From a virus (Duplodnaviria > Heunggongvirae > Uroviricota > Caudoviricetes): a DNA stretch of 6,968 nucleotides. This document shows, piece after piece, positions 6,532-6,968 of the stretch. The notes under the pieces were generated by a model that saw only the letters and a list, made by a program, of their open reading frames with translations, was not told the DNA's origin and searched no databases. The stretch lies in the IMG/VR virus record IMGVR_UViG_2645727905_000001, one strand, 5' to 3'. Within the stretch, counting starts at the first letter, position 1; each line of letters begins with the position of its first letter. The translations under genes were made by a program, and so were the position numbers.

Positions 6532-6899
6532 TGCTGCCCCCACAAACAGACTTCACGCTCAATATCACGACGGGTCATCAGCCCTTTCCATTGCTTACCG
6601 CCAGCGTATGTCCAGCGACGTAGCTGGTCACATGCGCCTTTGATATCACCCTGGTTTATTTTGCGAAGAAGCGTCGATGTTCTGAAATTACCAGCGCCCA
6701 CGTTGTAAACGAACGAGTAAAGAGCGCCGCGCGTTGTTTCCGGTATATCGACTTTGATGTACGGGTTTATTTGTCTGGCGACCGTGGCAAGGTCTTTATT
6801 CAGGAGGGCTTTGCATTCTGCTTCGGTATACGTTTTACCGGGCATGATGTCTTTTCCGGTGTGTCCATGTGTCACGAACGGTGCAATAGTGATCCACAC
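6528..6899 (-). pseudogene. R: Phage lysozyme (endolysin, T4-lysozyme-like / P21 R / RrrD-type), apparently 5'-truncated
   Basis: C-terminal ~110 aa ([113 protein letters not shown]) match P21 R / E. coli RrrD as I recall them. The expected N-terminal SAR segment and catalytic region (..LEGVSYIPYKDIVGVWTVC..) are absent. Upstream in-frame sequence is unrelated, with a stop at 6954-6956; the other two minus frames also hit stops. The only in-window start is a GTG at 6897-6899. Confidence 0.7.
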
Positions 6900-6968
6900 C
6901 CAACGCCTGAAATCAGATCCAGGGGGTAATCTGCTCTCCTGATTCAGGAGAGCTTATGGTCACTTTTG

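Follow-up and report, generated by a model that had tools for sequence, protein, structure and literature searches.

The right-hand end of the 6,968-nucleotide stretch analysed here, referred to below as the window, is in all likelihood best explained as a whole by the insertion of IS100 into rrrD of a decayed lambdoid prophage, the istA 5′ UTR of the element carrying a hairpin that would act as a translational attenuator. A sequence-only reading of the same DNA had taken the region for a prophage boundary, or for a rearrangement fusing a lysozyme remnant to an unrelated gene. The relevant features are:

6528–6869, minus strand: 3′ remnant of rrrD, a SAR endolysin gene (codons 53–165 and stop), matching the intact 165-aa lysozyme of L005
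6865–6869, no strand assigned: one copy of the target-site duplication, CCATG on the plus strand and CATGG on the coding strand; CATGG is also present at the IS100 right end (L091, L092)
6870–6968, plus strand: left end of IS100, an IS21-family element of 1,954 bp, of which the first 99 bp are present, matching L001:3009-4962 at 99/99 positions
6870–6897, plus strand: terminal inverted repeat (TGTCAC...), including unit L1, AATAGTGATCCAC, at 6885–6897, a presumed IstA-binding site; GATC at 6891–6894
6882–6890, plus strand: extended -10-like TGcAATAGT, a promoter candidate together with TTGACA at the right tip
6910–6922, plus strand: second repeat unit, L2, AAATCAGATCCAG, also presumed to bind IstA and conserved in relatives; GATC at 6916–6919
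6933–6953, plus strand: istA 5′-UTR hairpin, a predicted RNA fold with a 9-bp stem (6933–6941/6945–6953) and a 3-nt loop (6942–6944)
6946–6950, plus strand: Shine-Dalgarno (SD) sequence AGGAG of istA, 5 nt before the start codon, by direct reading
6956–6968, plus strand: beginning of the IS100 transposase gene istA, covering M V T F and one base of codon 5; the reference has a 340-aa IstA, then IstB

Nucleotides 6870–6968 correspond to IS100 positions 1–99 with no difference from the reference copy. This copy (L001:3009-4962) spans 1,954 bp between the two copies of a 5-bp duplication, TCCAT, and encodes istA (340 aa, MVTFETVMEIK...) and istB; IstA of reference copies with the same ends is 340 aa long with rve and HTH, and IstB is present. 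BLAST with positions 6860–6968 as the query returned matches in 2,725 of 5,426 complete E. coli genomes, and the RefSeq annotation at the matched sites reads 'istA: IS21-like element IS100 family transposase'. Both termini follow the 5′-TGT ... ACA-3′ form of IS21-family elements, the left end being identical to the reference over its 99 bases and the right end terminating in ...TTGACA; on the partner contigs described below, 98 and 55 bases of the right end are present and identical to that of IS100. Given this identity, the plus-strand gene is istA, and the palindrome, the SD sequence and the ATG all belong to IS100. The sequence-only reading was correct in placing AGGAG 5 nt before an ATG at 6956 (ATG GTC ACT TTT, MVTF) that opens a plus-strand gene running off the window; in the reference copy this frame encodes the 340-aa IstA. 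It had also proposed a comparison of the palindrome with IS ends, and the palindrome turned out to be part of the IS100 left end, downstream of the terminal repeat. The window covers only the first four istA codons (MVTF), and every contig ends within the IS. The right edge of the window falls 99 bp into IS100 because short-read assemblies break at this multicopy repeat; the contig end is an assembly artefact.

IS100 was described from Yersinia pestis and is common on chromosomes and plasmids of E. coli, Salmonella and Shigella. The 99 bp of the window share with it the terminal repeat, the L1 and L2 units, the hairpin, the SD sequence, the istA start and the 5-bp target duplication. The E. 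coli variant differs from the Y. pestis copies by C in place of T at 6953, so that the pair at the base of the stem is G-C rather than G·U, with no structural difference. IS100 is very common, IS insertions in prophage genes are routine, and the event itself is ordinary and already known. The sequencing of IS100 dates from the mid-1990s (papers cited in PMC10122671).

The uninterrupted allele of the lysozyme gene encodes a full-length, 165-aa homologue of PDB 4ZPU (RrrD) and 3HDE (P21 lysozyme), with E about 1e-108; a class II holin gene lies before intact rrrD and Rz after it. In the window, this relative of RrrD and of the phage P21 R SAR endolysin is split by IS100, which lies between codons 54 and 55. 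The sequence-only reading had started the truncated region at 6880; the alignment to rrrD that it had suggested for placing the breakpoint loses similarity after 6869, which sets the breakpoint at 6869/6870, 11 bp further left. Its description of the remnant itself stood: in the minus-strand ORF at 6528–6899 the lysozyme homology starts at ...HGHTGKDIM, stops occur upstream of the homology in all three minus frames, and the 5′ truncation removes the SAR and catalytic region. The part absent from the window comprises rrrD residues 1–52, among them the hydrophobic signal-anchor-release (SAR) segment and the residues E35, D44 and T50, which form the catalytic triad of P21 R. Enzymatic activity should be expected from neither half of rrrD. 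That no holin precedes the lysozyme is true within the window, but an intact holin lies beyond IS100 (L091, L092). The ORF at 6528–6899 is a chimera of 123 aa, with a GTG start inside the IS100 terminal repeat from which it reads into the lysozyme remnant; a look-up found it called in no public assembly, gene callers taking the internal ATG (105 aa).

The product of the far junction was predicted for target duplications of 3, 4, 5, 6, 7 and 8 bp, and each prediction was looked up in the public protein collection. For 5 bp, rrrD codons 1–54 read into the reverse-complemented IS100 right end and terminate shortly after (...WTVCHG-VNDG-stop, 58 aa). Exactly this 58-aa product is present in public assemblies, on three contigs, and none of the products predicted for 3-, 4-, 6-, 7- or 8-bp duplications was found in the public protein collection. 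On the far-junction contigs L091 (GCA_001266305.1) and L092 (GCA_902505375.1), the holin is followed by the rrrD N-terminus ending ...TGTATGTCATGG and then by TGTCAACGACGGATGAAAAGTGATCC..., which is the IS100 right end; this end, reverse-complemented, begins TGTCAACGACGG... on these contigs, which stop 98 or 55 bases into the element. CATGG borders both junctions, and the empty site, ...TGTATGT CATGG ACACACC..., was found in L004, L005 and L008. Joining the N-terminal fragment to the window remnant and removing one CATGG restores the intact L005 lysozyme gene over 498/498 positions with 0 mismatches. Among the other IS100 copies surveyed, identical 5-bp flanks were observed at 52 of 79, and 5-bp target duplications are described for IS21 (PMC10122671). 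As to the question 'insertion or REARRANGEMENT', the junction sequences show that IS100 inserted in the simple way and duplicated 5 bp of target, the interior of the copy being deduced from its ends.

These results leave a negligible probability that the junction is a prophage boundary, or a rearrangement joining the lysis remnant to an unrelated divergent host gene. Viewed alone, the window does lack the lysozyme N-terminus and a holin, and an apparently unrelated plus-strand ORF begins where the homology ends. However, the sequence from 6870 onward is IS100, and the missing N-terminus and holin abut the right end of that element with the matching 5-bp duplication, so that the gene can be rebuilt perfectly.

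The two junctions were recovered on separate short contigs, three for each, and the assemblies displayed differ, namely GCA_002075205.1 for the left junction versus GCA_001266305.1 and GCA_902505375.1 for the right. The 105-aa remnant ORF with its ATG start occurs on three contigs of 5–10 kb; the one displayed, L010 (GCA_002075205.1), is identical to the window except for 1 base in 6,967 and has the same end point inside IS100. It is very likely that both junctions occur together in one genome. An exact search with the rrrD/IS100 left junction gave no match in species-representative genomes, and BLAST searches of complete E. coli genomes (RefSeq), plasmids and phages with queries that span the junction returned the two halves separately, never joined. 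The rrrD::IS100 allele is rare, having been seen in few draft assemblies.

On the minus strand, from 6869 down to 1, the gene order is rrrD remnant, Rz, Rha-family regulator, Nu1, terminase A, W and portal. After about 350 codons the portal gene breaks off and is fused directly to lom/tail-fibre DNA at about 860–866. This portal-lom join (1–866 / 850–1911, minus strand), at which head and tail genes are deleted, is a second and older prophage lesion. The fusion protein was used as a strain marker: its 353-aa ORF recurs without change on at least 24 contigs, some of them from strains with an intact lysozyme, and on several of these contigs the class II holin (71 aa) and the 165-aa lysozyme are both intact. 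The presence of intact lysis genes on the portal-lom background indicates that the IS100 insertion was a later event. Since the head and tail genes had already been lost, the biological consequence of splitting rrrD is small. For annotation, the 'truncated lysozyme' is an IS100-interrupted pseudogene beside the IS, and neither a prophage end nor a novel fusion.

The left terminal repeat of IS100 matches the reverse-complemented right end, TGTCAACGACGG..AAAAGTGATCCAC. Each end contains two GATCCA-containing units that are conserved in relatives, an arrangement analogous to the L1/L2 and R1/R2 repeat organisation of IS21 ends (PMC10122671), and by this analogy the L1 and L2 units would be bound by IstA. 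A consensus scan of a single IS100 copy detected no sigma-70-like promoter. The last six bases of the right end, at L001:4957-4962, form a perfect TTGACA, and abutting the two ends with a 1–3 bp spacer creates TTGACA-N16-18-AATAGT, with a spacing of 16–18 bp. In IS21, a -10 element in the left terminal inverted repeat and a -35 element in the right one form a promoter when the ends abut (PMC10122671). The corresponding IS100 sequences are thus a candidate junction promoter, in which the -10-like element of the left end would be active only when the ends abut, as in IS21. The outward-facing TTGACA could also build hybrid promoters with flanking DNA. Taken together, the likeness of IS100 to IS21/IS5376 extends to the istA-istB operon, the L1/L2 and R1/R2 repeats, the -10/-35 arrangement at the junction, the 5-bp duplications and a second in-frame start.

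Recognition of the ends of IS10, IS50 and IS903 is controlled by Dam methylation. In IS100, the Dam site GATC lies within GATCCA in all four presumed IstA-binding units, the right-end sites being at about L001 4907 and 4941. GATCCA is kept in enterobacterial relatives, and GAGCCA or GACCCA occurs in some distant ones, including a Piscirickettsiaceae-type element. The analogy hints that IS100 end recognition may be under Dam-methylation control.

The palindrome consists of GCTCTCCTGA (6933–6942), T (6943) and TCAGGAGAGC (6944–6953), and its arms are 100% complementary, as the sequence-only reading had described. No other perfect 10-bp inverted repeat with a spacer of 0–10 nt occurs in the window; the number expected from shuffles is 0.065. 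The RNA stem comprises 9 bp, not 10, because the innermost A-U pair is impossible around a 1-nt loop. Its 3′ arm contains the AGGAG and lies beside the start codon. For comparison, istA 5′ regions were gathered through genome, exact-protein and metagenome look-ups, yielding 29 distinct sequences; the analysis used 25 of them, ranging from about 99% down to about 50% IstA identity. The first scan for relatives returned mostly identical Y. pestis and Apirhabdus copies, and the diversity came from the exact-protein look-ups and from a metagenome scan seeded with distant relatives. MAFFT aligned the 3′ arms of two clades in different registers; pairs were counted by base-anchored counts with controls (Python). 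In the shuffle control, the 5′ part was shuffled and the SD part retained.

An ungapped stem of at least 7 bp ending 0–4 nt before the start codon was present in 23 of the 25 distinct relatives, which are phylogenetically non-independent, and its 3′ arm holds an SD-like purine run in most cases. The mean stem length was 8.7 bp versus 3.4 bp in the controls, 8.9% of which reach 7 bp. The stem sequences include GCUCUCCUG/CAGGAGAGC in IS100 and GCUCCUCUG/CAGGGGAGC in ISSen3-like elements, and further relatives have GAUGCUUUUCA/UGAGGAGCAUC, AAUGCUUUUU/AAGGGGCAUU, GGUGC.../...GCACC and GGUAC.../...GUGCC. Two or more canonical pair types occur at every stem position, with changes on both sides. When arms were exchanged between the two clades, 6/6 pairing was obtained in 0.4% of cases, compared with 100% for the own arms. 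Thus both compensatory and wobble changes preserve the hairpin at the RNA level, although part of this conservation is non-independent evidence because function as the SD sequence also constrains the 3′ arm. G·U pairs account for 37 of the 213 stem pairs. They lengthen the stem in 21 of the 25 sequences, whereas A·C, the antisense equivalent, does so in 3 of the 25. The loop varies from 3 to 16 nt among the relatives, and an all-Watson-Crick stem is found, among the 25, in the E. coli IS100 variant of the window only, Y. pestis IS100 having a G·U at the stem base. The variable arm spacing and the strand-specific wobble argue for an RNA hairpin in the sense transcript rather than a double-stranded operator.

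The same data bear on the possibility that the palindrome is a DNA operator at which a dimeric protein, through IstA HTH domains or as a host factor, represses istA transcription. The E. coli IS100 variant does present a perfect 10+10 bp palindrome beside the presumed IstA-binding repeats, and for IS21 a masking of promoter elements by IstA at the ends has been proposed (PMC10122671). However, the perfect symmetry is confined to the E. coli variant; Y. pestis IS100 and all other relatives pair through G·T, which is asymmetric in DNA, and the palindrome bears no similarity to the L1/L2 units. With G·T asymmetry in 21/25 sequences and an arm spacing of 3 to 16 nt, the site has neither the symmetric half-sites nor the fixed spacing of a palindromic operator, and this interpretation is improbable. 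Of the two agents that the sequence-only reading had offered for occlusion of the ribosome-binding site, the hairpin is therefore favoured by the comparative evidence, and the palindrome-binding protein is disfavoured by the spacing and the wobble pairs. An intrinsic terminator was also considered and rejected: the stem is followed by TTATGG with no T-run, and a terminator scan reported nothing at the site.

Among the intact-looking relatives, L097 (JGI 3300018722 contig, upstream of 1501; 57% IstA identity) is the one without an SD hairpin and has an exposed AAAGGAG, with a different stem-loop farther upstream; its istB is in three ORFs, so the element may be decaying. In L148 (metagenome contig PPYF01209277.1, upstream of 401), which retains an MVTFETVM start, the sequence is unrelated up to 2 nt before the ATG. 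As its left end and hairpin are missing, L148 may be a copy that was truncated or rearranged, or else a chimera of the assembly.

No Rfam family exists for the istA hairpin region. A sub-threshold Hsp17 match covers the hairpin (21.3 bits, E = 0.098; L001:3056-3097, equal to window 6917–6958), and the U-rich 5′ arms of distant relatives pair with the SD sequence through G·U in a manner resembling fourU elements, both of which could point to an RNA thermometer, with the istA SD becoming accessible as the temperature rises. Yet 21.3 bits is far under the gathering threshold of 45 and at chance level, reflecting a shared architecture of a hairpin over an SD sequence. Moreover, the predicted exposure of the IS100 SD rises only gradually, from 0.09 at 30 °C to 0.16 at 37 °C and 0.22 at 42 °C, and in the distant clade it is near zero up to 60 °C. 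With a sub-gathering score and only gradual predicted opening, the hairpin was not assigned to the thermometers, and such a role is very improbable.

The G-rich segment CCAGGGGG (6919–6926), which overlaps L2 and is conserved as CCAGGGG in the IS100 clade, is complementary to the 5′ arm of the hairpin, CUCUCCUG (6933–6941). Judging from this complementarity, it could in principle compete with the SD sequence for the 5′ arm, and such competition may explain the non-zero SD exposure predicted at 37 °C.

The palindrome would thus be a built-in part of the IS100 5′ UTR that folds in the istA mRNA with the SD sequence in its 3′ arm. The folded stem would hinder 30S binding at the istA SD, and the reduced access would result in low translation of full-length IstA. 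Judged by its structure and conservation, the hairpin is most likely a cis-acting translational attenuator of the IS200 kind. In IS200, a stem-loop in the tnpA 5′ UTR has been shown experimentally to sequester the SD sequence and block 30S binding (PMC4513863), and hairpin control of this kind is recurrent in IS regulation (PMC8450116). The two elements are alike in having an inverted repeat in the left end, within the transposase 5′ UTR and over a near-consensus SD sequence. In contrast, IS200 is not related to IS100 and has an HUH transposase; its structure is longer (nt 69–138) and acts together with the antisense sRNA art200 and Hfq. We know of no role for an antisense RNA or Hfq in IS100.

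IS10 and IS50 offer a second analogy, in that a sequence in the IS end pairs with the transposase ribosome-binding site, as in IS100. Their own transcripts are without the upstream arm, and read-through transcripts are silenced, which is an established mechanism. By analogy, the IS100 transcript might start in or after the left arm, leaving the SD free, with silencing limited to read-through from flanking DNA. In agreement with such a start, a -10-like hexamer directly precedes the stem in both clades (TAATCT|GCTC..., CACACT|GATGC..., CACAAT|GGTAC...), the IS100 candidate being TAATCT at 6927–6932. However, the consensus scan of the single copy, mentioned above, detected no sigma-70-like promoter, and the best -35 candidate (TTGAAA or CTGAAA) is merely 14 bp from the hexamer. 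In addition, a transcript from the candidate junction promoter would start upstream of the hairpin and carry both arms, which favours a constitutive attenuator and makes the IS10/IS50-style variant rather unlikely.

IS21/IS5376 were compared by description only, and the literature searched makes no mention of an SD-sequestering hairpin in IS21. Likewise, no description of the istA 5′-UTR hairpin was found in that literature, a set that stands apart from the primary IS100 papers and the IS21 review. If correct, the attenuator model would extend a well-known regulatory theme to one further family and would involve no new principle. The SD hairpin is conserved as RNA across a broad branch of the clinically widespread IS21 family, and provides a testable candidate for the cause of low transposase translation.

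The start of IstA itself is strongly conserved. M1, E5 (GAG) and M8 are invariant in the 25 IstA relatives (istA codons 1–8, L001:3095-3118), and for 19 of the 25 the prediction is a more open region around codon 8. In IS21, a second in-frame start gives rise to an N-terminally shortened 'cointegrase' (PMC10122671), and the invariant M8 suggests that istA of IS100 similarly has two in-frame starts, for a transposase and a cointegrase. That the hairpin biases initiation toward M8 is a weak and speculative proposal. In its fullest form, which we regard as a tentative model with the odds against it, the hairpin would be a conserved module of the IS100/ISSen3 branch that throttles M1 and spares M8 by way of the GAG at codon 5, and so would set the ratio of transposase to short isoform. 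If true, this M1/M8 hairpin module would be one so far undescribed in the IS21 family. The window contains istA codons 1–4 only (6956–6967); the GAG or GAGG at codon 5 lies 5–7 nt before the M8 ATG and resembles an internal SD sequence.
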